A stretch of 64,000 bases of DNA from Alphaproteobacteria bacterium (GTDB taxonomy: Bacteria; Pseudomonadota; Alphaproteobacteria; Micavibrionales; Micavibrionaceae): contig JAJFGV010000008.1 of the NCBI GenBank assembly GCA_021775965.1, positions 4,662 through 68,661 on the forward strand. The letters run 5' to 3'. The translations under genes were made by a program, and so were the position numbers. Below the pieces are notes generated by a model. The model ran no database searches and was not told the origin of the DNA. It saw only the letters and a list, made by a program, of their open reading frames with translations. This document shows positions 14,369 through 58,343 of the stretch, piece by piece (positions within the stretch are counted from its first letter, which is position 1; every line of letters begins with the position of its first letter).

Positions 14369-17300
14369 TTAACCTATTCCTGAACCGGGATCGATTTTCG
14401 GCGCTGCACTCGTACTTGTGAGCACCAGTTCTTCCGGTTCAACTTTTGTTTGTTTGTGATCATGCTCATCTTTAAATGTTTTGGCCAATCCGGTTTTGTC
14501 TTCAACGGCGACGCCGATCTGTGCCAATAACGTTGACGCTTCTGGATTGCCTTTCAACTGATCGACATAGGAGGCCATGATCAGCTCTTTATTGCTGTCC
14601 ATGTCTGGCCTGTAGTCCTTGCTTAGTTCGGCTACAGCTTGCAGTCCGGCCCAATTTACGGCGGCTTCGTCGACAGTCTTTGCGTTTCCTATGCCTGTTA
14701 AAAAGCTTTGCTCTACACCCTTGTAATAATCTTCGTAGGGGTAGGTTCCGTCGCTGGAGCTATCAAACATTCCCTCTATATCGAGTTTAATTTGCACAAT
14801 GTTGTCTGGATTCTTAGACCAGGAAACGGCTGCGCCTTTGCTAAAGTCTTTTGGTTCAAGGGGGTTGCCGACTGAAAATGCAACGATGCCGTATGTCTCC
14901 GGTTGTTTGGCGGTGACCACTTTCTGCGGTTCTGTTATTTTTTTCGCCTCTTCCCTAATCAATTCGGCTGGTTTTGGTAAAACTTCTTTTTCCTTGCTTA
15001 CCAGTTTGGCAAGCTGAGCATCTTCTTCGAGTGTTTCGGCTTCTAATGCGAATTCTTTTTTCTCCAATGAAGCCACATATTGTGTCACCGGCGCCTCATC
15101 ATTCGTACCAACAAGAATTATATTTTCCTCATTAGTATCAATCGTAGGAGGTGTGCCGGTTTTGGTCTCAGCCGCAATTTCCTCTTCGATTTTTTGCGTG
15201 TTGGCTTGAACTATGGCTGCAACTGGTTCCAAGTCGATATTAACCTCAGGGCTCCCTATTTTATTAAAATCTTTCTGAACCCTTGGGGGCATGGCTGTGG
15301 CCACTAGTGGCTCCGTATGTTGGAGAGCACCGCCAAGAGTAGAGGTGTACAGAATGGGATCGGCAACGGATTGCTGACCGGTTAATATCTCTGTAGCGGT
15401 GGTGAATTCTTGTTTTATATAACCTGCGCCAAAATTGTTAAGAATCTCTGCCGGGGTGTTGCCTGCAAAGTTTTGGTAACCCCTGTTGTCCTTTCCGGCC
15501 ACTTTCGTGGGTTCGGGTGTGTTGAGATCTTCGGTTGTTTCTTTTACAAGCACAGCGGCGTCAGATCCTTCGTCCGTTGGATTTTCTTCTTTCTGTGCAA
15601 ACACTGTGCTCTCGAGCAGGCCTTCCTGCGTTTCGGCAGCCGCAAAATCGGAAAAGTTGCCGCCCTCGATTTTGTTTAAAGCCAACAATACTGTAGAGCC
15701 CAACCCATTTAGTTTTTGTTTTGGTGATAAGTCATTGCCTTTAAGGCTTTCCATTGATTGGCTTAATGCCACGAAACTGGTGTCTTCCGGCGCGTTTTGA
15801 ATTGCCTCGTCAAGAGCCTGATGCATCTCTTCAGGTGTCGCTTTTGCAAGAGACCCCCTCGTTTTTAAAGTGCTGTCTTCAACAAATACGTCGAAATTTA
15901 ATTTTGGTTTTTCGGCCTCGGCAAACAAGATTTCTGTTTGTGTGTCACCTGGTTTGATCATTGCCAGTGCTGTGGCGTACATATTCTGGTTATCTGAGCG
16001 TTGTTTCTCCGGAGTTCCTCCAACCGCACTCTCTATGGATTTTGTAAGTTTTCCCAGATCGGTTGCGGCGGGAAGTTCCTTAAACAAGACCGCTAATTGC
16101 CGATCAATTTCATTCGGATCGGCATTGTTGAGGGAACCTTTAACGCGCAATGCACTGTCTTCGTTGACGAAGAGTTTAAATTTTGTGTTTGTCTTTTCCG
16201 CGTCGTTTTTTACGATCTCAGTTTTGGGTTCAACGGCCTTTGGCTCAACGAACACAGGTCCAGCAAACTCTCTAAGCCATTTCCAGGTCCCTGAGAAAGG
16301 TTGGAATATTTCTTCTTTTTTAGGTTTTGTTGCTGTTGGTTTTTCTTCCTCAGCCATTGGTTCCACTCCCTTTAATGTTTCTGTTTCTTGTTCTAAATTT
16401 TTTGTTGTAAATTCCCCTGTCGGTGGTTTGTCTGCTCCATACGCGGTACCTGATCCGCCTAAAGGTGCAAAAACTGTCTCCAGGGTGGTTCTCACGGTAT
16501 CTTCTGCGTCAGAGCTTGGGTTTGTCTGGTTTGCGGCTTCTTCAGGTTTTTCCATTAACCCTGCCGTCTGTAATCTTTGATCAAGATCAGGAATAATTTT
16601 TTCGATATATTTAAGAGTTCTTTGGTCCCAAAGATTATGTTGGTCGTACATTTTTCTGTCGGAACCTCTAACCTCGGGCCAGTCTTTTGGATCAATCCCC
16701 TTATTCAATTCATTGTTGCGCCACTCACTGCGTTCTTTCATGAATTTAACCCATTCGAGACCGGTGATATTGTCTTTGCCAAGTTCATCTTTCACGTCGT
16801 TGATAGCGCCCTGTCCGGCGTTATAACGGACGAGTTTTAAAATCGGATCATTGTTGTTGGCTTCAAGGGCCTTAACGCTAAATTTTATATAGGCTTGGCG
16901 GGCTTGGACCGGATCGTTTAGCTCTGCAACAGAGTTCAGCCCATATTCTTTTTCCTTTGCCGTTTCCAGTGTAAATTGGTACATGCCGTAAGAATTTTTC
17001 TTCGGATCATTCTCAAAGATGTTGGCGGCTGTCGGATTAAATGTAGATTCCTTAAAAACCTGATTGGATGATATGGCGATATCTATCTGAGTTGCACCCG
17101 GATTGCTGTTATGGTCGGCAAGCGCTTCTATATGATCACGGGCATATTCGTTAATTTTCTTGTCATTGACCATGGCTTCGAGCAGATCGGTGCGCAGGCC
17201 TAGAGCGTTGACGCCAAATTCGTCCTGTAACACAAGACCCATGGCCGTGCGTTTTGTTTGCGGACCGATAATGACTTTACCGTCTTTGTCGACATCGATG

Positions 17301-17422
17301 TCAAAGCCAAGGCCCTGTGTATCTTTTTGGAATTTTTGGATGACATCGTCACTTAAAGAATCTCCATTGAGAATCTTCTCAGCTGTTGTCAATAATTCTA
17401 TAGGAATAGCGATAGCCGCCAT
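14369..17422 (-). CDS. large (1017 aa) protein with N-proximal SLT-type lytic transglycosylase domain, acidic low-complexity body and internal repeat
   Basis: aa ~105-215 carry FKESTFNP (catalytic Glu-Ser), YGMYQF and RYNAGQG, the order seen in soluble lytic transglycosylase domains. The N-terminus MAAIAIPIELLTTAEK is not a signal peptide. Confidence 0.8.
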   Translation of the reverse strand: MAAIAIPIELLTTAEKILNGDSLSDDVIQKFQKDTQGLGFDIDVDKDGKVIIGPQTKRTAMGLVLQDEFGVNALGLRTDLLEAMVNDKKINEYARDHIEALADHNSNPGATQIDIAISSNQVFKESTFNPTAANIFENDPKKNSYGMYQFTLETAKEKEYGLNSVAELNDPVQARQAYIKFSVKALEANNNDPILKLVRYNAGQGAINDVKDELGKDNITGLEWVKFMKERSEWRNNELNKGIDPKDWPEVRGSDRKMYDQHNLWDQRTLKYIEKIIPDLDQRLQTAGLMEKPEEAANQTNPSSDAEDTVRTTLETVFAPLGGSGTAYGADKPPTGEFTTKNLEQETETLKGVEPMAEEEKPTATKPKKEEIFQPFSGTWKWLREFAGPVFVEPKAVEPKTEIVKNDAEKTNTKFKLFVNEDSALRVKGSLNNADPNEIDRQLAVLFKELPAATDLGKLTKSIESAVGGTPEKQRSDNQNMYATALAMIKPGDTQTEILFAEAEKPKLNFDVFVEDSTLKTRGSLAKATPEEMHQALDEAIQNAPEDTSFVALSQSMESLKGNDLSPKQKLNGLGSTVLLALNKIEGGNFSDFAAAETQEGLLESTVFAQKEENPTDEGSDAAVLVKETTEDLNTPEPTKVAGKDNRGYQNFAGNTPAEILNNFGAGYIKQEFTTATEILTGQQSVADPILYTSTLGGALQHTEPLVATAMPPRVQKDFNKIGSPEVNIDLEPVAAIVQANTQKIEEEIAAETKTGTPPTIDTNEENIILVGTNDEAPVTQYVASLEKKEFALEAETLEEDAQLAKLVSKEKEVLPKPAELIREEAKKITEPQKVVTAKQPETYGIVAFSVGNPLEPKDFSKGAAVSWSKNPDNIVQIKLDIEGMFDSSSDGTYPYEDYYKGVEQSFLTGIGNAKTVDEAAVNWAGLQAVAELSKDYRPDMDSNKELIMASYVDQLKGNPEASTLLAQIGVAVEDKTGLAKTFKDEHDHKQTKVEPEELVLTSTSAAPKIDPGSGIG
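15623..16189 (-). repeat. two tandem ~95-aa protein repeats inside the 1017-aa ORF
   Basis: KFKLFVNEDSALRVKGSLNNADPNEIDRQL...KSIESAVGG aligns by eye with KLNFDVFVEDSTLKTRGSLAKATPEEMHQAL...QSMESLKGN. Confidence 0.6.
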
Positions 17423-23833: not shown

Positions 23834-24077
23834 CTAATTGAAAAAATATGGAGTCACCTGCCGGATTCGAGCTCAGGGTATGAAGCCATATTCAGAAGGG
23901 GGGGTAGGAAGAATTGGGGGTGGTCGGTTTGTTAAGATAAGGCCTGCTGGAATTTTTAGTGTATTTTTCAGAATAATTATTTTCTTAAAAGCTTGCGCCG
24001 GCAATGCTATTTTAGGTAAGACTCACTTATAAGTTGAAAAACGTAACTAGCCTAGCTTTTTCGGACGGAGAAAAATT

Positions 24078-25943
24078 ATGAGTTTCGATATAAACAAATT
24101 CAAAGCAGAAAAACATTTAAGCAATAGGTATGCAAAAAGAATTCAGGCCTTAAAAGATAAAGGTAGGCAAACAGACTGCATAGAAAAGACCGTTAATGAA
24201 TCTGTGGAAAACATTCAGGGTAGCGGGCGCTCATTCATAGTTTATGGGGAACCCCAAAGCGGTAAGACAGAAATGATGATTGCCCTTACAGCCAAGCTGC
24301 TGGATGAGGGGCACAAAATAATTATTCATCTGCTGAATGACAATGTTTCTCTTTTGGAACAAAACTTATTAAGATTTCAACAGTCGGGACTTTCTCCTGC
24401 TCCATACAATTTTCTAGAAATCATGGATCCTGTTATTGAGATTGGGGATAAGGAATGGGTGATCTTCTGTAAGAAAAATGGGAGCAACCTTAGAAAACTT
24501 ATAGAAAAAGTAGGTCATATAGGTGGCAAGATCATTATTGATGATGAGGCGGATTATGCTTCCCCTAATGCAAAAATAAATAAGGAGGGGGAAAAAACAC
24601 CGATAAACGAACTGATTGAAACTCTTTTAAAAAATGGAGGCACATACGTTGGTGTCACAGCAACGCCGGCAAGGCTTAATCTAAATAGTACGTTTGAAAA
24701 TGACCATACGAAATGGGTGGATTTTCTCCCTCATAGTAAATACACAGGTCAAGACACATTTTTTCCCATCACACATAGCTGTGAATTTGGTATGACGTTT
24801 GTTCCAGATGGTGCTGGTGACGATCCTAAATGGTGCCGTAATGCCTTGTTTGGTTTTATGGTGAATGTCGCATATTTAAATTTGCATCCTGAGATACATG
24901 GAGAAGAAAACTATAGCTTTCTTGTTCATACAAGCGGGAAGAAGGCAGACCATAAGATTGATTATCAAACCATACAAAAAGTGTTTGGTACTTTGTCGGA
25001 CACAAGCGACAAGAATTTTGCTAAGTACGTTGAAAAAGTGTGGGCATTAGCTAATAAGCGTTATCCCGGCGAGGCGGATAAGATTACAGATTATATTTTA
25101 GAGAACATAGGACGCCGGAATACTGTTGTTATGAACAGCGCTAAAGAGTTTGAAAAAAATCACAAAAGTGCCACTTCTCCTTCAACGATCTTTACTATTG
25201 TCATCGGTGGTAATATCGTTTCCAGAGGTATGACCTTTGATAATCTTCTGTCAATGTATTTTACTCGTGACGTTAAGCATAAAATTCAGCAGGATACTTA
25301 TATCCAGCGAGCGCGTATGTTTGGTACCCGCGATTACCTCCCTTATTTCGAGCTTACAATTCCCGAGAACCTCTATTTAGACTGGCATAGGTGTTTTATC
25401 TTTCATAGGCTTGCCCTTGCGGCCGTCCGTGCTGGAAACGCACCCGTATGGCTGGAAAGTAAGAGAATTTCTGCTGCAGCATCTGCGAGTGTGGACAAAT
25501 TGAATGTTTCTATAGATGCAGGTGAGATGAGCTACGGCATTTTTGATTACAATGGCGTTAAGACGGATGCAGAAGGCATAGTGAGTTCGGAAGACAGTAA
25601 TATTTCTAAACTAGAAAAGCTGCAGAGTTTGTTGGGAGAGGAGAATTTCCCCGCATACGTGCTCTCCTATATTCGAGAATTTAGTCCGCAGGGCGATAAT
25701 TCAATTACGCTTCATTCCTCACATTCCATTGCGAATATGCACGATGCTGATCAGCAAAACATCAGTCGTAAAAGAGGTTTTATGGGTGGTGCTAATTTCT
25801 CAAAGAACTCACCGGTAGCACATCATTTAAGGATTTCTCACAATGCGATAGGGCAGGCTCGTTTGTTCTATAAGTATAACGGCAGCATAAAGTTCCTGAA
25901 AAATTTCAAGACCATCAAAGGGCCGAAAGAAAAAGCTGCGTGA
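24078..25943 (+). CDS. Z1-domain NTPase (SF2-helicase-like), putative restriction/defence component
   Basis: GEPQSGKT Walker A, IIIDDEADYASP DEAD-like box, GVTATPAR motif III. Then IVSRGMTFDNLLSMYFTR...DTYIQRARMFGTRDY, which matches the remembered Z1 pattern (SRGLTLEGL..SYF.R....DTL.QMGRWFGYR). Confidence 0.7.
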   Translation: MSFDINKFKAEKHLSNRYAKRIQALKDKGRQTDCIEKTVNESVENIQGSGRSFIVYGEPQSGKTEMMIALTAKLLDEGHKIIIHLLNDNVSLLEQNLLRFQQSGLSPAPYNFLEIMDPVIEIGDKEWVIFCKKNGSNLRKLIEKVGHIGGKIIIDDEADYASPNAKINKEGEKTPINELIETLLKNGGTYVGVTATPARLNLNSTFENDHTKWVDFLPHSKYTGQDTFFPITHSCEFGMTFVPDGAGDDPKWCRNALFGFMVNVAYLNLHPEIHGEENYSFLVHTSGKKADHKIDYQTIQKVFGTLSDTSDKNFAKYVEKVWALANKRYPGEADKITDYILENIGRRNTVVMNSAKEFEKNHKSATSPSTIFTIVIGGNIVSRGMTFDNLLSMYFTRDVKHKIQQDTYIQRARMFGTRDYLPYFELTIPENLYLDWHRCFIFHRLALAAVRAGNAPVWLESKRISAAASASVDKLNVSIDAGEMSYGIFDYNGVKTDAEGIVSSEDSNISKLEKLQSLLGEENFPAYVLSYIREFSPQGDNSITLHSSHSIANMHDADQQNISRKRGFMGGANFSKNSPVAHHLRISHNAIGQARLFYKYNGSIKFLKNFKTIKGPKEKAA

Positions 25944-26461
25944 CAAAGGAATTTGAACAATACCACGGTGTCGTATTTTCGCGCTTGTTGCACGCTTCTC
26001 CTGAACCTTTGTGTTTTAAATTTTATCCAACAAAAAGCAACTCATCTTACGTAATCAATGATGTGGCAGGCCTCTATATCAAACATTCTACGAAGCGCGT
26101 CTCACCGTGGCGGTTCACTTTTTCTAAAGCTCACCAAGATGAGATTTTTGAAATGTATGAAACGTTCGGAGAAGTCTTTGCGGCCTTTGTTTGTCACCAT
26201 GATGGTGTCGCCGTTCTCAATTTCGAAGAATTAAAGCAAATACTTGATGAAAACCATGAAGATTCTGAGTGGGTCAGCGTGGCAAGACGCCGGCGGGGCC
26301 AGTACACTGTCGCAGGTACAGATGGAAAATTAAGTTTTAAAATTACCCAAAAAACTTGCCCCGATAAAATTCTTGAATATTTAGCGGTTAATTCGCAAAA
26401 GTCTGGACAATCTCGTAGCGCATCCTTTTTCCCAAAGACTCTTTCTTTCCTTTCGGGATAG
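25940..26461 (+). CDS. hypothetical protein translationally coupled to the Z1 gene
   Basis: GTGA start/stop overlap with the Z1 ORF, 173 aa. No motif recognised. The 3' end overlaps the convergent methyltransferase by 74 bp. Confidence 0.5.
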   Translation: MTKEFEQYHGVVFSRLLHASPEPLCFKFYPTKSNSSYVINDVAGLYIKHSTKRVSPWRFTFSKAHQDEIFEMYETFGEVFAAFVCHHDGVAVLNFEELKQILDENHEDSEWVSVARRRRGQYTVAGTDGKLSFKITQKTCPDKILEYLAVNSQKSGQSRSASFFPKTLSFLSG

Positions 26462-27575
26462 GCAGGTATCTTCTGTTTTCAGGCAATTCGCGCTTTTGGG
26501 AATCAATAAGATTCAAGTCGAAAATGCTTCCTGCACGCTCAAATATTTTTGAATTCTCAATATAGGTTCCTTGCAAACAAGAATTACCTACAACAAAGAC
26601 TGCCTTCCCTTTTTTGTTAAGAACCCTTGAAACTTCAGACATAAGGCCGATAGCATCACCAATATAACGCTCTATCATTTTAATCTGCCTTTTGGGTAGG
26701 CTTTCTTCCGTCACTATCTCTTCCCTAATTTCTTTTATAATATCATCGTTTTTGCACTTCTCTTTTGCCTTTTCTGCTCCAACAGAAATAGATCGGATAC
26801 CTCGAATTTCAGGAATCGTATACCCAAACCACACCAGCGAAAATTTATGGCCCCTAAGATAGTCTATTGCATTAAGGTATGGGGGAGACGTTATAACAGC
26901 ATCTATTGATTTATCTTTTATGCTGTCCAAAAATCGGGCATCACCAAGTGAGACGTTTGCTTTTCCAATTTCTTTACCTTCGAACGAAAGCTGTTTAACC
27001 AATTTTTCAACGGAGCTTTTATATCCTGCGAATACATCATAATCATTTTCCTCTCTAACTTTGTGCGGTCGACTGTGTGATATATCCCACGCTAAAGAAG
27101 CCCCAACTTTTTTTGTGATAATGATGCGGCTCAACGCTAACTTCAAAGCATCAACTATTTCACGATCTTTGCCTTGTTTTTCGTACTTGTGCAGGAAGTA
27201 TGCAATTTTTTTAAGGTCTCTCTTTTGGGGGTTACTAAACCAAAAATCTATGAATTCTCTTGTTTCTTTATCTTTATCAATCCAAGGCAGCTCAATATCG
27301 CTTAACCGGGCATTGGACGCGTTTGTTATTAATCGGTCAAACTTCTTTTCAAGTTTCTCTAGGTCAATTTTACGTGTCCATACGTTTGAAATAAGAACAG
27401 CCAGAGGATCGAGATCATAACCATAAGCATCATGACCTTGCATAACCGCTTCTCTCAAAACTGTTCCCGATCCTGTCATGGGATCAAGAACTTTAGCACC
27501 ACTAGGTAAATCGGATATTGCCTTTAAAGCTATTTCAGGTGCCATACGGGCAGGAAAGGGGTGAATTGCGCGCAT
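26388..27575 (-). CDS. DNA methyltransferase (N4-cytosine or N6-adenine; SPPY motif IV)
   Basis: HPFPARMAPE N-terminus, VLDPMTGSGT AdoMet motif I at aa 29-38, ITSPPYLNAIDY motif IV at aa ~229-240. Confidence 0.85.
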   Translation of the reverse strand: MRAIHPFPARMAPEIALKAISDLPSGAKVLDPMTGSGTVLREAVMQGHDAYGYDLDPLAVLISNVWTRKIDLEKLEKKFDRLITNASNARLSDIELPWIDKDKETREFIDFWFSNPQKRDLKKIAYFLHKYEKQGKDREIVDALKLALSRIIITKKVGASLAWDISHSRPHKVREENDYDVFAGYKSSVEKLVKQLSFEGKEIGKANVSLGDARFLDSIKDKSIDAVITSPPYLNAIDYLRGHKFSLVWFGYTIPEIRGIRSISVGAEKAKEKCKNDDIIKEIREEIVTEESLPKRQIKMIERYIGDAIGLMSEVSRVLNKKGKAVFVVGNSCLQGTYIENSKIFERAGSIFDLNLIDSQKRELPENRRYLPIPKGKKESLGKRMRYEIVQTFAN

Positions 27576-28480
27576 TTAAAATTTCCGTGTCAACTACAGA
27601 TGGTATTGACACTAGCAAAACCAACAGTTCGTTGAAAGCTTGTTTATTGATTAAGTCTTTATTTTTATGAGGATTTTGTAGAGAAATGACAAAACTACAT
27701 AAACACTACATCACACTCCATATAGGTAAGACCAATAAACCAAGGAAAACGGGGGAAATAGCCATATATAAGGGCTATATAACTACGATCCTGCCAAACA
27801 CGCAGTGTATTTTTGTCCATTCAAAGGCTCTTGGGTGGCCCCATCCATAATGTTTTACCGAAATCGCCCTAAGACTGTATGTGTAAACAGTTAGAAGCTT
27901 GTCGGTCAGGCTTTATGGAGTAAGTATAATTTTAAGAGTAAGAAGGAAAAGTAAACAGCAGTAAATGGTTTTTTTGTTTTGTTATTTTTAGTTTTACTTC
28001 CCCATTCACCCCCCATCACCTAGGGAGACACAGATTTATTCCCCCCCTAAGAAACTAAGAATAAAAAATAGATACACTGGTAGTATATCTTTCTTAGTCC
28101 CTTAAAGGGGAGGTATGATTGTTTGTGTGTCTTCACCTGAGGGCTTTACACATCATCTAGTAATTGAATCTCAAACGGCTAAGGGCAGTGACCATTATTC
28201 CCTGTCCATCGATTCAGTATCCACTGTCACGGTTACAATTATAAATAATTGAGCATACTTAGGAGCCATTACTAGCGACCCATAAGCATCCAAAGTTGTT
28301 ACGCCTAGAACATTGCTTTGGTTCTTTTCATTCCTGTGATCTTGTTCTTTTGAGGGGTGGTGGTCTATGGCTAGTAACTTAAGCTCTTAACCCACCGATC
28401 TTTGTTTAAACAGGCTACTGCCCTCTGTTTTATTGAACTATTTAACTTCTATTACGTCTATTATACAGCATTCAATCTGG

Positions 28481-28545
28481 CTATACCAAACCCACGAAAT
28501 GTGAATATGGCCCGTTTGGTATAGGGGCTGTGAACTTGGTATAAT
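28481..28545 (+). promoter_or_regulatory. candidate promoter with overlapping inverted-repeat operator upstream of the AlpA-like gene
   Basis: CTATACCAAAC (28481-28491) and GTTTGGTATAG (28514-28524) form a perfect 11-bp inverted repeat. A third TTGGTATA half-site overlaps a perfect TATAAT at 28540-28545. TTGGTA at 28516-28521 gives an 18-bp spacer. Confidence 0.45.
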
Positions 28546-28611
28546 ATAGGTAAATTCAATTGATTTTACGCATAGTAACGCAAATAAGCGCTAGAAAGGC
28601 GCTCTAATATC

Positions 28612-28845
28612 ATGGACAAAAAAGAAGTCTCTCAAAACAAAATGAAGCTGCTAAACGATCACTCACTTGCAGAGCTATTGGACGTATCAGTGGCATGGGT
28701 TCGCCTACAAAAGCACCTCAGGAAGTATGGCAAAGAGCACTCTCTCGGTGTTGATCCTATTCTCATCGGTAAAACCAGACGCTACAGGTTATCCGATGTA
28801 GAAGCGTGGTTGGCTAAACAGGAGCATGAACAGGCTGCTAATTAA
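28612..28845 (+). CDS. AlpA/excisionase-family (MerR-like) helix-turn-helix protein
   Basis: 77 aa. LLNDHSLAELLDVSVAWVR...RRYRLSDVEAWL matches the pattern of prophage AlpA/Xis DNA-binding proteins. Confidence 0.7.
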   Translation: MDKKEVSQNKMKLLNDHSLAELLDVSVAWVRLQKHLRKYGKEHSLGVDPILIGKTRRYRLSDVEAWLAKQEHEQAAN

Positions 28846-29087
28846 GTGCCCTTTCCTGACTCGCAGAAGGTCACTGCGTCCAGTTTAATTCCATAATGGT
28901 AGTGGGGTAGCCTTGAAAAAAGAACGAGTCACCGAGCTTCCACGGGCAAAGAAGAGTCACTTTTATTTCTGAGGAATAACAACGAGAAACCACTAAAAAC
29001 AAACAGCATTCTAAAGTGGTCTTGGTAAGGGTATTGAGGAATTTAATTATATATTAGGGAGGTAGTAAATGAATAGTTGATTTGGTA

Positions 29088-52735: not shown

Positions 52736-52915
52736 AAAAGCAGAACCAGGACCGTTTAAACCAACGTAATATTTTAAACTGTTTTATTTCAATGACTTAG
52801 AGTTATCTAACGCTTGAATTTTTCTAAAATTTTAAGTAAATTTTATTTTTTTTGGTACACTATAATAAGAGGGGAAATTTTTCTCCGGTTTGCGCGTGGA
52901 AAACGATTTAATATC

Positions 52916-54103
52916 ATGAGTAACAAGGGATTTTCATTAATAGAACTGGCGCTTGCGCTGATCGTGATCGGATTGCTGGTCACGCCCTTCATGCATGATT
53001 ACAATTTATACTCCAAGCGTAAAATTTCCGAGCAGACTGAATTATCTCAGCGTACCGTACTTCGAGCGATGAATGATTTTTTTGAGGCCAATGACCGTTT
53101 TCCGTGTCCGGCCAATTTGGCTCTTGATGAGGATGATCTTAATCATGGCGAGGAAAACTGTACGCTGCCCCCCGGCGCGCCGGCCCCTGGCGCATGTATT
53201 TTCGGTGGTGGTGTCTGCCGCGCTTCCGGGCGTGATGCTGATGGCGTCATTGGTCCCGATCCTATTTTAATCGGTGGTGTTCCCTATGCGACATTAAATA
53301 TTCCAGTAAACATGTCTCTGGATGGTTACAGAAGGAAGATGACTTATGCGGTCACAGAGACCATGACCGATGCTGCAACCTATAATGAATCATCCGGCGC
53401 CATTACCATTCAAGAGTGGGATGGTGATGACTTATCACCACCAATACCCGGTTCACCGCCAATACCCAATAGCCAGCCTTATCTTGTTGTTTCCCATGGC
53501 AGCAATGGTGTCGGGGCTTTTACGGCCAGCGGTAATCTTGTGCAGGCTTGCCCCAACCCGGCAGTTAGTGCAGAGGATGAAAATTGTGACAACGACAGCA
53601 CGTTCGAAACGCCGGGACTATATATAAATACCGCCGGTAGAGAAGTGGGAGCAAGATCACTGGCGGCAGGTGTTGATTATAACGACGACGAAGTCCTTTT
53701 TAATATATCTGGCGGCACTGGGCTTTGGGTTTATACGCCTGCCGATCCCGAGGATATTCACTTCAACAATGAAGGCAATGTTGGGATCAATCAGGATGAT
53801 CCACAAGAGAAACTCGATGTCGGCGGCAATATTAAGGCCGATACCGTTCATGCTATCACTTATTGTGATGATGCTGGAAATTGCTTTCCGCCCGAAATGA
53901 TTGGCGGCGACGGTATAAGATGTTCCAATGCCCCTAACGAGGCCATGACAGGTGTGGCCAACAGCAATTCACTTTGTAATATTGCGCTGCCCGCAGGCAG
54001 CGTTACCAACCCCGGAGGGGGGGCTGGCGATCCGCCATGCCCGGCCGGTTCGTTTGCGACTGGATTAAAAGGAGGAGTCATACAATGTACAGCAGCACCA
54101 TAA
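52916..54103 (+). CDS. large prepilin-type protein, paralogue 1 (395 aa; GspG/pseudopilin-like core plus Cys-rich C-terminal region)
   Basis: MSNKG|FSLIELALALIVIGLLV is the class III signal (G/F, Glu at +5). DGYRRKMTYAV resembles the pseudopilin D.WG..Y motif. 12 Cys. Confidence 0.8.
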   Translation: MSNKGFSLIELALALIVIGLLVTPFMHDYNLYSKRKISEQTELSQRTVLRAMNDFFEANDRFPCPANLALDEDDLNHGEENCTLPPGAPAPGACIFGGGVCRASGRDADGVIGPDPILIGGVPYATLNIPVNMSLDGYRRKMTYAVTETMTDAATYNESSGAITIQEWDGDDLSPPIPGSPPIPNSQPYLVVSHGSNGVGAFTASGNLVQACPNPAVSAEDENCDNDSTFETPGLYINTAGREVGARSLAAGVDYNDDEVLFNISGGTGLWVYTPADPEDIHFNNEGNVGINQDDPQEKLDVGGNIKADTVHAITYCDDAGNCFPPEMIGGDGIRCSNAPNEAMTGVANSNSLCNIALPAGSVTNPGGGAGDPPCPAGSFATGLKGGVIQCTAAP

Positions 54104-55932
54104 GAAATAATATGAAACGCAAGGCCCAGAGAGAAACCGGAAATTTGCTAAAATCGGCAGGTTATACATTGGTGGAATTGGCGGTTGTGGTGCTTGTTGT
54201 AGGGATTGTACTCGCTGCATTCTTTTCTTCTTACGAGATATATCTCAACAACCAAAAGGTTATTAAAACGGAATCCAATCTGTCGCATCTGACCGGTGCC
54301 ATTGGTAATTTCCGGGCGCAATATGGGCGCTACCCCTGTCCGGCATCGTTGATTTTGCCAAGGAACGATCCGCAATATGGGCGGGAGAGCCTTTGTACGG
54401 ACGATATAACTGTTGCGGTTGGAACCTGCGATGTTGGTGGTGGCGGCACGGGCTATTGTGTAGAGCAAAGCGCAGGAACAATTGATCATGATAATGATGG
54501 CGCAACAGGGATGCCGCCAACGCCTGAAATTAACCCGCGGGTACGGCGCGGTGCTTTACCGTTCAGGAATTTGAATCTTCCGGAGGAATATTCTTATGAT
54601 GGCTATGGCAACCGTGTGACTTACGTGGTGACAGAGCGCCTTGCCGTTGCCGATACCTTTCAGGTAAATCATGGCGGGATATCGATTGTTGATGATACGC
54701 CGGGGGAACAATCGCTTTTGGAGGTTGCTGATAAAGGACATTTCCTTATTTTTTCCCCTGGGGAAAATAATGCCGGGGCTTATAATAATAATGGCGTACT
54801 GGTTCAGGCCTGCCCCAACCCGGCCTTAAGTGCAGAAGGCGAAAACTGCAACATAAACGCTACAGATGCAAAATATGTGCAGACGGCTATGCGTACAACA
54901 AATGATAATACTCGTTTCGATGACCGGTTGTCTTTCTTTTCACAGGTTGAATTGTCGCTTTGGCAAAGAACGCCGGCCAACAGAAACCATATCGAACAAC
55001 GCCCCGATGGCTTTGTTGATTTTGGTGATTTTGCTGTTAAGGCGGCGGACGACATTACCGAAGTTCTCGGTGATGTAAAGGCAGAGGATAAAATACACAC
55101 GACGGATGGAATATGTGATTCGACAGGAACGCTAAGTTCTGCCGGCAAGTGCTTTGGACCTTCATTGATTGGCGGTACCGGCATGATGTGCCCGAATGGT
55201 GAGTATATGGTTGGTATTAAAGACGCCGCTCCAGATTGTGAACCTTTTGTCTCCGCTTCATGTCCAGAGGAGGGCGATTTTGTGACGGGCGTGAATGATG
55301 ACGGGACATTGATATGCAGTGGCAAAGGATGTGCATCCAAGAATCACAAATTTTGTGACGGCGTCATCGACCCGCTTCCTTCCGGGCCTGAAGGCGGCAC
55401 CACTACGGGTTCTGTTAGCGGTGTTGACTTTGTCTGTAAAAGTGAAAGATGGCGGCCAAGATCGTCCGCTGACGCCTGCTGTGTCCCTAGTACCAAGGTA
55501 CGGACAACAGAATGCCGTCCTGGTTTTGAAGGGGAAATAGTAAAAACAACGACAATAACATGTTTTCCGCGGACAAAGACGAAGGATACAGATGAAAGTG
55601 GCTGCAACTGCGTTGGTGGTCCGACAACCAAAGAGGTAAGTTGCCCGCCCGAAAAGCCGGCAGGAACCAAAATAATAGGGGGAACCTTTGAGTGTCCTGG
55701 TGGCGCGACGAAATGGGGAGATCCTGTCTTTGATGACTGCCATGTGCCGCCTGTTGTTTATTGTTCATGGCAACCCATTAATCAAACCGGGACGGTGCAG
55801 GCCAATAGTATGCCTGATCCGAAGGCCGGTTCCGGTTGTGCCTGCGGTGCGGCCAATAAATCATGTTTTACGGTTGGTATCCCCGGCAGTTCGTATGACA
55901 AACACAACTGCCGTTGCAGTGTAAATCAGTAA
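54085..55932 (+). CDS. large prepilin-type protein, paralogue 2 (615 aa; long leader, extra ~200-aa Cys-rich tail)
   Basis: AAGGAGGAG RBS 7 nt upstream of the ATG at 54085. Leader MYSSTIRNNMKRKAQRETGNLLKSAG|YTLVELAVVVLVVGIV. Shares the PCPA, DGYGN..TY and ACPNPA.SAE.ENC blocks with paralogue 1. Confidence 0.75.
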   Translation: MYSSTIRNNMKRKAQRETGNLLKSAGYTLVELAVVVLVVGIVLAAFFSSYEIYLNNQKVIKTESNLSHLTGAIGNFRAQYGRYPCPASLILPRNDPQYGRESLCTDDITVAVGTCDVGGGGTGYCVEQSAGTIDHDNDGATGMPPTPEINPRVRRGALPFRNLNLPEEYSYDGYGNRVTYVVTERLAVADTFQVNHGGISIVDDTPGEQSLLEVADKGHFLIFSPGENNAGAYNNNGVLVQACPNPALSAEGENCNINATDAKYVQTAMRTTNDNTRFDDRLSFFSQVELSLWQRTPANRNHIEQRPDGFVDFGDFAVKAADDITEVLGDVKAEDKIHTTDGICDSTGTLSSAGKCFGPSLIGGTGMMCPNGEYMVGIKDAAPDCEPFVSASCPEEGDFVTGVNDDGTLICSGKGCASKNHKFCDGVIDPLPSGPEGGTTTGSVSGVDFVCKSERWRPRSSADACCVPSTKVRTTECRPGFEGEIVKTTTITCFPRTKTKDTDESGCNCVGGPTTKEVSCPPEKPAGTKIIGGTFECPGGATKWGDPVFDDCHVPPVVYCSWQPINQTGTVQANSMPDPKAGSGCACGAANKSCFTVGIPGSSYDKHNCRCSVNQ

Positions 55933-55946
55933 AGTGAAAAGAGAAG

Positions 55947-57260
55947 ATGATGAAACATAGGGATAATGGTTTTACATTGGTCGAAGTGGCAATCGTCATG
56001 CTGGTTTCCGGGATTTTGTTAACCGCAGCGGTGCGGGGCTACGATTTGTTTTCCCGTGATAAAGAACGCCGGGTCACCGTGGAAAATATAGAGGCTGTAA
56101 ATTCAGCCATTGCCTTGTTTCAGGCTGCACATGACCGCTTTCCGTGCCCGGCCCGATTGACGGCGCGGCTTGGCGATCCTGATTACGGTCAGGAAATTGA
56201 TTGTAGCGCTGCTATTCCTATTGTGCCGCCTATCGGCGTTGACACAGTGGCGGCCCACCCCGACCGTGATCCTGATGATGATCCGGCCACGCCTCATAAT
56301 ATTTTGATTGGCGGGGTACCATTTGTCACGCTGGAGATGGAGGTGGATGAGTTTGATCTTACGATTTTCCACCCGGTCCGGCTGGATTTATCTTCGACGC
56401 AAATTCTTGATGGTTGGGGAAACAAGCTGACCTATGCGGTGAGTGAGAGCCTTGTGCAGCAGGATACCTTTAATGATGATTTGGGAGTTGTCAGCGTTTC
56501 GGATGAATTTGATCAAAGTCTTGTGGATCCGGAGCACAGTGCGCATTTTGTTGTCTTGTCCCATGGCAGCAATGGCCGGGGCGCCTATACCACAACCGGT
56601 GTCCGGATTGGTAATCCCTGCACAGGTGGATCTGTTACCTTGCCGTCACCGCCTGCGCCACCGGCGCCTCTGAATGGTGGCACAACAACGATCGAATATG
56701 AGAACTGTAATGGTGACGAATTGTTCATCAGTGCACTTAGAAACGACGTTCCCGGCAATGCTTATAATGATGACATCGCAAGTTTCCAGCTTTTTATCAG
56801 CTCTGATTTGTGGGAATTCGCGCCCGGTCCGCCTGGTGCACCTCCGACAGCTCCGGGCAGTATCGTCAATAAGAATTTTGGCAATGTTGGTATAGGGACG
56901 GATACACCGACAGAAAAATTGCATGTTGAGGGTAAATTGAAGGCCGAGAGTTCTAAATCTGTCAGAATTTGTAGTGCAGCCGGTGAGGCTGATTGTTTTG
57001 AGCCCGGTCTTCTTGGTGGCGGTGCAAATCCTTTTGATCACGCAAAAGATACGGATCCTCCCTCTCCTGATGGTTTAACGGGCAAACAGGGTATGTCATG
57101 TAGCGATCCTACACATGCCATGATTGGTATCGTTGACAACAAGCCCGTCTGCGCCAGTCCTTTTGTTGGCTTTGGCGGTATCACCGACAAGTGTGATCCC
57201 GGGGAGTATATGATAGGGATTAAGAGCAATAACACAGTCGATTGTGAGCCCTTTAATTAG
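55947..57260 (+). CDS. large prepilin-type protein, paralogue 3 (437 aa)
   Basis: MMKHRDNG|FTLVEVAIVMLVSGILL. DRFPCPA, GGVPFVTL, DGWGNKLTYAV, SHGSNGRGAY and NVGIGTDTPTEKLHV blocks. 10 Cys. Confidence 0.8.
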   Translation: MMKHRDNGFTLVEVAIVMLVSGILLTAAVRGYDLFSRDKERRVTVENIEAVNSAIALFQAAHDRFPCPARLTARLGDPDYGQEIDCSAAIPIVPPIGVDTVAAHPDRDPDDDPATPHNILIGGVPFVTLEMEVDEFDLTIFHPVRLDLSSTQILDGWGNKLTYAVSESLVQQDTFNDDLGVVSVSDEFDQSLVDPEHSAHFVVLSHGSNGRGAYTTTGVRIGNPCTGGSVTLPSPPAPPAPLNGGTTTIEYENCNGDELFISALRNDVPGNAYNDDIASFQLFISSDLWEFAPGPPGAPPTAPGSIVNKNFGNVGIGTDTPTEKLHVEGKLKAESSKSVRICSAAGEADCFEPGLLGGGANPFDHAKDTDPPSPDGLTGKQGMSCSDPTHAMIGIVDNKPVCASPFVGFGGITDKCDPGEYMIGIKSNNTVDCEPFN

Positions 57261-57439
57261 GACATTGGCCAGAAAAAATAAGCTATTCAGCCCCTACAAC
57301 CTGCCAAAGTACATAATTTATGCACTTTTATAATATTTTTATACATTTTATCTTGACATTGTTTTTCCATGCTTGGTACAAAGCAATAGAATTTATGGCT
57401 GGACTCCATAATTTGTTAAGATTTCCCACACAGAAACGG

Positions 57440-57481
57440 AAGCCGTTCTTCATTTCATGAAGGGCGGCTTTTGTTCTTTTT
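57440..57481. terminator. strong hairpin between convergent genes (candidate bidirectional terminator)
   Basis: AAGCCGTTCTTCAT / ATGAAGGGCGGCTT 14-bp stem (two G-U pairs), 3-nt loop, followed by TTGTTCTTTTT. Confidence 0.6.
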
Positions 57482-57488
57482 AAATAAA

Positions 57489-58343
57489 TTAAAGCGTTTT
57501 ATTGGCCGGCCTGAATGGCCCGAATATTGACGGCTTTTCATTGGGTTTGAGATAGCGCCCGGCGGCGATGATGTGGCCGCTTTCACGGTTTTGTGCAAAA
57601 ACCACAAAGCCTTTATGCTTATCCTTTAAATTGGCGGCGATGCGTATCGCCTTTTTATTTGTGCTACCAATATCCAGTTTTGTCATCGCACTGACGATAT
57701 TGTTGTAGACAATTTGTTTTCCCTTATTGCGGCCACCTGTAATGCTCAAATGATGCGGCTTGTCCGTCGTTGCTAGCCATATATCATAGTTGTCAATGCC
57801 TATACCTTCTTTTGTCTCGGGAAGAACAAGGTTAAACTGATTTTCTTTTTCTGCTTTTATAATTTCAATCCGGCCAATTTTTTGATCCGCAGCTTTCCGC
57901 ATTTTTTTTGAAACCTCATCAAGGCGGTAACCGACCGTTTCGTAAGTACCGTTAATCACCATTTGCGGCGTGTAATTTGGCCCGCTGCGCAAGATTGATT
58001 TATAACGGGTCTGACGTTTGCTGCAAAACGGCCTCGATAGCGATCCTTCCCGCACATCGAAATAATCAACATGGCAGGCGAAACCAATCACATTTTCCAT
58101 TTGCGACAGGTCATCCAGCAGGCGATCCGCTTTGGGACAAAACACACAGGCCTGTGATGAAAAAAGCTCCAGCACCACCAGCCCGCCCATTTCCGGTTGT
58201 AACGCTTCGGCCTCAACGGCGACGGGCGGCACAGCGGGCGGTGTGTTTTGTGCTTTGACTGGAGTTGGGGCGGTACCAGCATAAACCATCATAATACAGG
58301 CGAGAGATAAAACGAGTTTGAGGAGTATAGGGCGGCGTATCAT
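57489..58343 (-). CDS. DUF1223-family thioredoxin-fold protein (secreted)
   Basis: Signal peptide. VVLELFSSQACVFCPKADRLL (CxxC) and CHVDYFD match my recollection of DUF1223. Confidence 0.7.
   Translation of the reverse strand: MIRRPILLKLVLSLACIMMVYAGTAPTPVKAQNTPPAVPPVAVEAEALQPEMGGLVVLELFSSQACVFCPKADRLLDDLSQMENVIGFACHVDYFDVREGSLSRPFCSKRQTRYKSILRSGPNYTPQMVINGTYETVGYRLDEVSKKMRKAADQKIGRIEIIKAEKENQFNLVLPETKEGIGIDNYDIWLATTDKPHHLSITGGRNKGKQIVYNNIVSAMTKLDIGSTNKKAIRIAANLKDKHKGFVVFAQNRESGHIIAAGRYLKPNEKPSIFGPFRPANKTL

Follow-up and report, generated by a model that had tools for sequence, protein, structure and literature searches.

Three paralogous modular prepilin genes of a Micavibrionaceae genome, a candidate for a heterotrimeric type IV pilus tip

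The concept of large modular minor pilins at the tip of a pilus is established (PMC8179133, PMC6048534, PMC12075869), and modular minor pilins that form a trimeric tip are a kind of system already known. Three tandem prepilin-type genes, designated here as g1, g2, and g3 (395, 615, and 437 amino acids (aa), respectively), were found on a stretch of 64,000 nucleotides (nt) from an alphaproteobacterium of the family Micavibrionaceae (GenBank assembly GCA_021775965.1, contig JAJFGV010000008.1); this whole stretch is called the window below. Each of the three proteins is predicted to consist of a pilin helix, a disulfide-rich pilin head, one capping-loop motif of trimeric fibres, and Cys-bonded hairpin knobs. 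We consider it, on balance, probable that g1, g2, and g3 are one operon coding for three type IV minor pilins of modular build, which would make up a 1:1:1 heterotrimeric adhesive pilus tip assembled by machinery encoded elsewhere in the genome. An earlier note on this DNA, made from the letters alone, had considered a new class of pseudopilin-anchored surface proteins; such a class is not needed, as large modular tip pilins have been described. The note made no mention of the constant composition of two short genes and one long gene, the three ancient orthogroups, the capping-loop motif, the hypervariability, or the size of the family, all described below.

CofB of the colonization factor antigen CFA/III of enterotoxigenic Escherichia coli and TcpB of the toxin-coregulated pilus of Vibrio cholerae are proteins of about 420–520 aa with a class III-signal pilin module and beta-rich C-terminal domains. 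Their trimers, formed via the C-terminal domains, start assembly, sit at the type IVb pilus tip, and mediate binding, and a parallel role is proposed for the proteins described here. Both are, however, products of single genes, form homotrimers, and are encoded within type IVb operons, whereas the triplet consists of three diverged paralogues with another C-terminal module, usually lies apart from machinery, and has a link of type IVa character. CofB and TcpB structures were absent from the profile matches to PDB (E up to 1) and from the Foldseek lists.

The proteins of the window have the capping-loop motif of a trimeric beta-helix in common with Bdellovibrio fibres of the mosaic adhesive trimer (MAT) type and with S74 phage tail spikes. 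The MAT fibres differ as Sec-exported homotrimers of about 1000 aa with a common N-terminal beta-rich domain (about 130 aa), many repeats, and S74 or other tips; here, a single copy of the motif stands behind a pilin module, and no Peptidase_S74 domain was found in g1, g2, or g3 by Pfam. The KilL/KilM/KilN Tips of Myxococcus xanthus, compared by description and not by sequence, are a three-gene cluster of modular disulfide-rich minor pilins with a predicted heterotrimeric spearhead; several such clusters lie apart from the machinery, the host is predatory, and the Tips are implicated in prey range. They are three unlike proteins of a Tad-type system, while the three proteins here are paralogous, belong to one family, and have N_methyl-type signals and a capping motif like that of MAT fibres.

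GspI-GspJ-GspK from the type II secretion system (T2SS) and PilA-PilB-PilC of Streptococcus sanguinis also form a tip complex from three minor pilins, and in each set one pilin is modular or much larger. GspK, the tip-most pseudopilin, has no Glu at position 5, like some of the long paralogues described below. The modules of these sets are an alpha-domain, vWA, or lectin, and those of the triplet are a fibre motif and Cys knobs. The modular type IV pilins surveyed by Raynaud et al. (2021) likewise have an extra C-terminal module on the pilin module and a predicted tip-only position. The extra module here is without an InterPro/Pfam signature, so domain-based surveys of modular pilins would miss the family. 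The sequence family, the paralogous design of two short genes plus one long gene, and a pilin-borne MAT/S74 capping motif are not described in the searched libraries and literature.

Prepilin signals, predicted fold, and fibre motif

The tandem arrangement and the lengths of the three open reading frames (ORFs) are as the earlier note had given them (Table 1). All three products match PF07963 and TIGR02532 and have class III prepilin signals, with predicted cleavage at G|FSLIE, G|YTLVE, and G|FTLVE and Glu at +5 of each mature end, again as claimed. Beyond the N-terminal methylation motif, there is no Pfam or NCBIfam match in g1, g2, or g3, which agrees with the statement of the note that no characterised pilin family could be assigned. 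The proteins are collinear paralogues with 37–38% pairwise identity. The motif blocks listed in the note all occur, but two were given inexactly, as the third block of g1 is DGYRRKMTY without the (G/R)N, and the fourth always begins with S (SHG/SPG). The ACPNPA..ENC block of g1 and g2 is 80% identical over 45 nt, compared with 50% gene-wide; its conservation at the nucleotide level, also pointed out in the note, is a consequence of amino acid conservation. Recent gene conversion among the three genes was rejected, because the longest exact match between any two of them is not more than 17 nt.

A longer ORF of g2 starts at position 54037. The ATG at 54085, preferred in the note, has a strong Shine-Dalgarno sequence, AGGAGG, 9 nt upstream, and with this start g1 and g2 overlap by 19 nt. 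The overlap is also present in the related genomes L001 and L002, and overlaps from a few to about 20 nt were found at other loci. The Shine-Dalgarno sequence together with the overlap suggests translational coupling of the two genes. The strong hairpin that the note placed behind the triplet is there, with 175 nt between it and the stop codon of g3, and 14 nt between it and the end of the convergent gene at 57489–58343; it is a probable end of the operon transcript.

In a profile search of PDB, the alpha1 region of solved type IV pilins was matched by the family profile at E 6e-11 to 1e-5. In the AlphaFold2 (AF2) model of g1, residues 8–59 (52 residues) form the alpha1 helix, and a beta-sheet head has strands at 93–193. 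The predicted local distance difference test (pLDDT) values are mostly 84–97 and the model is confident to about residue 260; residues 264–312 have pLDDT <50 and are followed by two C-terminal beta-hairpins. Pilins and pseudopilins were on top of the Foldseek list of this model, with weak scores (E 0.09 and above), and the head is predicted to have the lollipop fold of pilins. The C-terminal module, modelled as a domain alone, has a pLDDT of 68.7 and a predicted template modelling score of 0.30, with the hairpin knobs at about 80. Foldseek similarities of this module to TNFR-like Cys-rich repeats or to a viral fibre were too weak to count. The second, partial match of the family hidden Markov model (HMM) near the C-terminus of g2 is a Cys-knob; no Pfam domain was found in the C-terminal extension of long paralogues from nine other loci.

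One copy of the motif I.N.N.GNVGIG...P...LDV.G is kept in each of the three orthogroups described below, in a more degenerate form in the long type. With phmmer, g3 matched Bd2133 (8OND) at E 2.3e-5 and, more weakly, 8OL4. Positions 262–318 of the family profile matched five MAT-fibre sequences of Bdellovibrio in PDB (8OND at 2e-8, 8OL4 at 7e-6, 8OML, 8OJN, and 8ON4) and weakly also MyRF (7DC3, E 0.33). In PHROGs, no more than marginal tail and tail-fibre matches were obtained on the motif (E 0.01–0.02). Caulton et al. (PMC10769870) define the segment (V-G-G/N-pi-x-x-P-x-x-x-L) as the loop that caps an obligately trimeric beta-helix, common to MAT fibres and S74 phage spikes, and the family motif fits this consensus. 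The segment fails to fold in the monomer AF2 models, being the low-confidence part of g1 mentioned above.

Table 1. Features of the prepilin triplet in the window (positions of the 64,000-nt stretch)
Feature	Position	Strand	Evidence
g1, short-type modular pilin, 395 aa, 12 Cys	52916..54103	+	ORF; N_methyl/TIGR02532 matches; family HMM E 2.6e-123
g1 leader peptide MSNKG, predicted cleavage after Gly5, mature N-terminus FSLIE	52916..52930	+	TIGR02532 match at residues 4-23
g1 fibre capping-loop motif IHFNNEGNVGINQDDPQEKLDVGGNIKA, residues 281-308	53756..53839	+	
g1/g2 junction: AGGAGG at 54070-54075, g2 ATG at 54085, 19-nt overlap with g1 end	54070..54103	+	
g2, long-type modular pilin, 615 aa, 30 Cys	54085..55932	+	ORF; N_methyl match at residues 23-46; family HMM E 7.9e-93; clusters with the long paralogues of every other locus
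g2 leader peptide, 26 aa, ending in LLKSAG; mature N-terminus YTLVE	54085..54162	+	predicted
g2 degenerate capping-loop copy IEQRPDGFVDFGDFAVKAADDITEVLGDVKA, residues 303-333	54991..55083	+	
g2 Cys-rich C-terminal extension, about residues 418-615, 19 Cys, in the long paralogue only, no Pfam match	55336..55929	+	
g3, short-type modular pilin, 437 aa, 10 Cys	55947..57260	+	ORF; N_methyl 28.6 bits, above cut-off; family HMM E 1.1e-109
g3 leader peptide MMKHRDNG, mature N-terminus FTLVE	55947..55970	+	predicted
g3 fibre capping-loop motif IVNKNFGNVGIGTDTPTEKLHVEGKLKA, residues 306-333	56862..56945	+	phmmer match to Bd2133 (8OND)
Terminator-like hairpin, 19-pair stem, 3-nt loop, T-run	57435..57475	+	

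The triplet as a conserved unit and its protein family

Exactly two short genes (about 400–470 aa) and one long gene (600–840 aa) were present in 13 of 13 independent full-length loci, arranged as short-long-short or short-short-long and with tight or overlapping intergenic junctions. A search for related loci with a tight alignment gave a single pattern and 13 loci, so the taxonomic sampling is narrow. The neighbour-joining tree groups the long paralogues from all loci in a single clade and places the short ones in position-specific clades; the triplication is therefore ancient, with each copy retained and three ancient orthogroups as the result. The short paralogues have 10–12 conserved Cys, the long ones 30 or more. 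In most loci, the long type has Tyr at +1. Glu at +5 is constant in the short types and is replaced by Gln in the long paralogues of 3 of 12 loci.

The triplet is hypervariable compared with its surroundings. Proteins g1–g3 are 53–59% identical to their orthologues in the metagenome-assembled genome (MAG) of Micavibrio sp. DHS20C02 (L001), while most flanking genes are 87–99% identical at the protein level; the DUF1223 gene immediately 3' of the triplet has 72.5% amino acid identity. In a second relative, the protein identity is 42–48% for the triplet and 72–94% for the flanks. At the nucleotide level, most of the triplet is 54–68% identical to L001 (78% in one 250-nt stretch) and most flanks are 80–90% identical, and the hypervariable stretch is sharply bounded when positions 52750–57500 of the window are compared with L001. 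The divergence has the pattern typical of exposed ligand-binding or antigenic surface structures.

The same observations bear on another reading, according to which g1, g2, and g3 would be three independent, alternative adhesive pilins, each placed at the tip or along the pilus, with three binding specificities and no heterotrimer. They are paralogues of one architecture, and the locus is hypervariable, as expected of adhesins. Moreover, a single copy can persist, as a lone family member was found in a mobile-element-like region, and CofB and TcpB act as homotrimers. Redundant alternatives would, however, be expected to vary in number, and the constant two-plus-one composition with its three ancient orthogroups does not fit this expectation; the overlapping genes suggest equal co-expression. 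Independent adhesins have a modest chance of being the right explanation.

The family is large. When 1.84 billion cluster representatives were searched exhaustively with the profile, 4,536 clusters (50% identity) were retrieved at E up to 1e-30, a share of which may be fibre-repeat proteins. Among the best 150 of the 4,536, about 145 are full-length matches of 366–500 aa at E <1e-87, accompanied by few long forms of 615–1209 aa and three giants of 5875–7453 aa. Word-indexed searches (28, 16, and 23 matches) had suggested a rare family, which was overturned by the exhaustive search; with the 144-sequence alignment, the candidate list of the word-indexed search was probably saturated by generic pilin helices. 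The consensus computed from 162 sequences has G|F(S/T)LIE at its start, then the alpha1 helix, nGRYPCPAD, three Cys, and VLIGaVPyaTL. It continues with DGWGnKlTYAVTe, VSHG.DG.GAY, PC...ENCDnD..F, YfDD, and LW, followed by I.N.N.GNVGIGT..P..kLDV.G.i.A with the fibre motif, and by CD..G.nCF.P..IGG.G..C..G..M.GI.....C and CP.G.y..GI...G..iC. Twelve Cys are conserved in the family, and Glu at +5 together with a full alpha1 helix is kept in 158 of the 162 sequences. Beyond the signal, the family is covered by no curated model of Pfam or NCBIfam. Shorter relatives (about 250 aa), as well as tandem arrays in MAGs labelled as Rickettsiales, have only the pilin head in common with the family, so the C-terminal module is a graft onto a pre-existing pilin type.

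The three giants (P0029, P0045, and P0154) contain 39–52 tandem copies of the capping-loop segment (profile positions of about 249–318) and are presumably very long fibre adhesins. A shorter related cassette is at L006 (6093–10981), where pilin-like proteins of about 325–420 aa keep the head and GNVGIG and are without the Cys knobs; large proteins of unassigned function flank it. The products of M. aeruginosavorus GMV_901-905, judged from the gene table only, are similar in size to those of L006, and the attack-phase expression of these genes is 20–62 vs. 3–18. Family member P0019 (435 aa) is solitary in a mobile-element-like region beside a phage-type integrase (L028, 2868–4175; L029, 8489–9796), and in L029, 4–6 kb from it, a 390-aa reverse transcriptase and bAvd make up a cassette that resembles a diversity-generating retroelement. 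An identical triplet is on two metagenomic contigs, L003 (1147–9645) and L004, in one of which the first pilin gene is separated from polyprenyl synthase by an inserted element with a tyrosine integrase, DUF736, an OLD-family nuclease, and genes of unassigned function. The NCBI taxonomy puts the genus Micavibrio in Bdellovibrionota/Pseudobdellovibrionaceae, and MAGs labelled as 'uncultured Pseudobdellovibrionaceae' (L010 and L013) may be Micavibrio-like alphaproteobacteria. Because of this filing, the labels are ambiguous, and presence of the family in true Bdellovibrio is not claimed.

Pilus machinery and neighbouring genes

In one metagenomic lineage (L020/L021), a triplet of 446, 428, and 741 aa lies directly after a type IVa pilus cluster. 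The gene order there is a TPR protein, a PilD-type peptidase (Peptidase_A24 and its N-terminal domain), two ATPases, a secretin, two membrane or unassigned proteins, an AraC regulator, a 272-aa pilin, and then the triplet. The ATPases scored 480 and 420 bits against a PilT/PilU cut-off of 319. Pilus machinery within 10 kb of the triplet was present neither in the window nor in any context other than L020/L021. The gene table in the genome paper of M. aeruginosavorus ARL-13 has the machinery in the same order at GMV_1530-1538, PilC-/PilB-like genes at GMV_1543-1544, and a separate prepilin triplet at GMV_742-744, with genes of 1176, 2079, and 1134 nt (391, 692, and 377 aa). Expression of GMV_742-744 in the RNA-seq data of ARL-13 is low, 0.2–3 vs. 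34–196 for the GMV_1530 pilin. For Micavibrio and related epibiotic predators, a 2025 review notes only the presence of type IV pilus genes. The arrangement in L020/L021 and the gene list of M. aeruginosavorus support the suggestion of the earlier note that this is a filament or adhesin family served by machinery encoded elsewhere, and the triplet very probably depends on such machinery.

Minor-pilin operons apart from the machinery are normal for type IV pili, so the lack of machinery nearby, which the note had treated as an anomaly, is none. The observation as such was correct: no prepilin peptidase, secretin, T2SSE ATPase, or platform gene was found in the window by Pfam scans of positions 1–44000 and syntenic annotation of 44–64 kb. 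Of the 36 ORFs with 150 aa or more in the first part, 30 were scanned, and the remaining six overlap longer ORFs or lie inside them. Scans and annotation together show housekeeping genes and a tRNA-Gly-linked genomic island.

The proteins could also be pseudopilins of a T2SS-like endopilus that replace GspG/H/K, reported as missing in Micavibrio, and serve protein export and not adhesion. The paper on ARL-13 reports GspC, G, H, and K as not annotated, some homologues were named PulG by the Joint Genome Institute (JGI), and the N-terminal helices match GspG and GspH weakly. The resemblance to GspG seen in the note is, however, confined to this helix, as TIGR01710 (GspG, a 134-position model) gave 12.1, 24.6, and 20.8 bits for g1, g2, and g3 against a cut-off of 88.85, at model positions 1–61 only. 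Of the curated models for GspH/I/J/K, only GspH and GspJ matched, at 12–15 bits against cut-offs of 80–295 and also on the helix only, and there was no Pfam match to T2SS minor pseudopilins in the three proteins. In addition, the single linked machinery includes a pair of retraction ATPases (PilT/PilU), as is typical of type IVa pili, and 400–840-aa modules with a fibre motif and disulfide knobs suit an exposed tip better than a periplasmic piston. We consider a T2SS function quite unlikely.

Quite unlikely too is a non-filament role, with the class III signal used only to anchor or export large proteins of the surface or periplasm, in the manner of archaeal bindosome-type substrates. Such a role would agree with the lack of machinery near most loci and with a C-terminal fold that matches no known fold significantly in Foldseek. 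Glu at +5 and a full alpha1 helix, however, matter for filament packing and are kept in nearly all family sequences, the head is predicted to be pilin-like, and the triplet of L020 is linked to type IVa genes. A Tad/Kil-type pilus Tip for killing or lysis, like that of Myxococcus, which would deliver a toxic activity beyond adhesion, is very improbable: the Kil Tips of a predator are likewise modular minor pilins, rich in disulfides and encoded in clusters of three genes, and Micavibrio has a highly expressed Tad/Flp locus, but the signals are of the GFxxxE/N_methyl type and not of the TadE/Flp type, and the sole linked machinery is type IVa.

Directly 5' of the triplet are membrane-fusion and pump genes of a resistance-nodulation-division (RND) system with no outer-membrane factor gene beside them, a layout that the earlier note described correctly and that carries no functional weight. 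The order of pump and triplet is present only in the window and its two closest relatives, one of them Micavibrio sp. DHS20C02, in which acpS, lepB, rnc, era, gcrA, the RND pair, pheS, and other flanking genes also have the same order; from this similarity of the flanks, the source of the window is a Micavibrio-like alphaproteobacterium. In distant relatives, the neighbours are polyprenyl synthase and Suv3 helicase, trigger factor, MazG, or the type IV pilus genes, and no conserved neighbour gene was found by all-against-all BLAST of the locus flanks. A functional link to RND was rejected, as the other contexts differ and the one other RND system nearby (L024) is only 22% identical and therefore unrelated. 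Since the adjacency is confined to the closest relatives, it is incidental.

The island mentioned above, at 24000–35053, has a G+C content of 39–43%, compared with about 48–52% around it, and is bounded by tRNA-Gly(GCC) (34979–35053, minus strand) and a tyrosine integrase (33518–34909, minus strand). It carries a gene for a Z1-domain protein (24078–25943), a DNA-methylase-like gene (26388–27575), and several ORFs without Pfam matches, and is probably an integrated mobile or defence island. A gene at 14369–17422 (minus strand) encodes a 1017-aa protein, in which soluble lytic transglycosylase (SLT) near the N-terminus is the only recognised domain and about 800 residues have no assigned domain.

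Proposed tip complex and its meaning

If the three proteins are minor pilins of one tip, each would enter the inner membrane, a PilD-type peptidase encoded elsewhere would cleave it behind the conserved Gly, and its N-terminal helix would allow incorporation into a type IVa pilus. The two short subunits and the long one would be distinct and non-redundant and would form a 1:1:1 complex that primes and caps the filament. In such a complex, the helices of the three subunits would be bundled at the base, one capping-loop segment from each chain would contribute to a short three-chain beta-helix, and the disulfide-bonded hairpin knobs with the Cys-rich extension of the long subunit would be the exposed tip. 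The tip may bind a surface ligand, plausibly on the prey of a Micavibrio-like epibiotic predator, and PilT-driven retraction would then draw the cells together. While the pilin signals and fold, the family, its triplet stoichiometry and orthogroups, the fibre motif, the hypervariability, and the linkage to type IVa genes in one lineage are shown here, we infer the location at the tip, the heterotrimer, adhesion, and the role towards prey.

Several points weigh against this heterotrimeric tip. The type IVa linkage is seen in one of about nine distinct genomic contexts, and pilD and pilBCQ of the source genome itself were not seen. GMV_742-744 would belong to the family by length, order, and annotation, and not by sequence. 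The putative interaction of g1, g2, and g3 is read from the fibre motif and the invariant triplet and not from a multimer model or experiment. The fibre motif is single, short, and degenerate in g2, and alone it could be a structural loop without a role in trimerisation. The C-terminal module has no significant Foldseek match (best E 0.55 in PDB and 0.08 in BFVD). The suggested role towards prey is taken over from the lifestyle of cultured Micavibrio, while most family members come from uncultured bacteria of unassigned lifestyle.

The heterotrimeric tip can also be thought of, more tentatively, as a chimeric part of an organelle: a pilin-anchored beta-helical mini-fibre, in which a type IV pilus tip is combined with the capping module of phage spikes and MAT fibres. 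It would then act in Micavibrio-like epibiotic predators as a head that evolves fast and recognises prey, with a hypervariability that would follow the prey range. This extended form has an appreciable chance of being correct, below an even one.

The cassette defines a large pilin family without a curated model, which is invisible to domain-based surveys. If the heterotrimeric tip is real, it would be a natural heterotrimer of three paralogous pilins, intermediate between the homotrimer of CofB and the heterotrimer of GspIJK. For the biology of Micavibrio and related epibiotic predators, the cassette is a concrete and testable candidate for prey recognition or holding, with three conserved subunits, hypervariability among close relatives, a motif shared with proven predator adhesins, and a link to a retractile pilus in one lineage.

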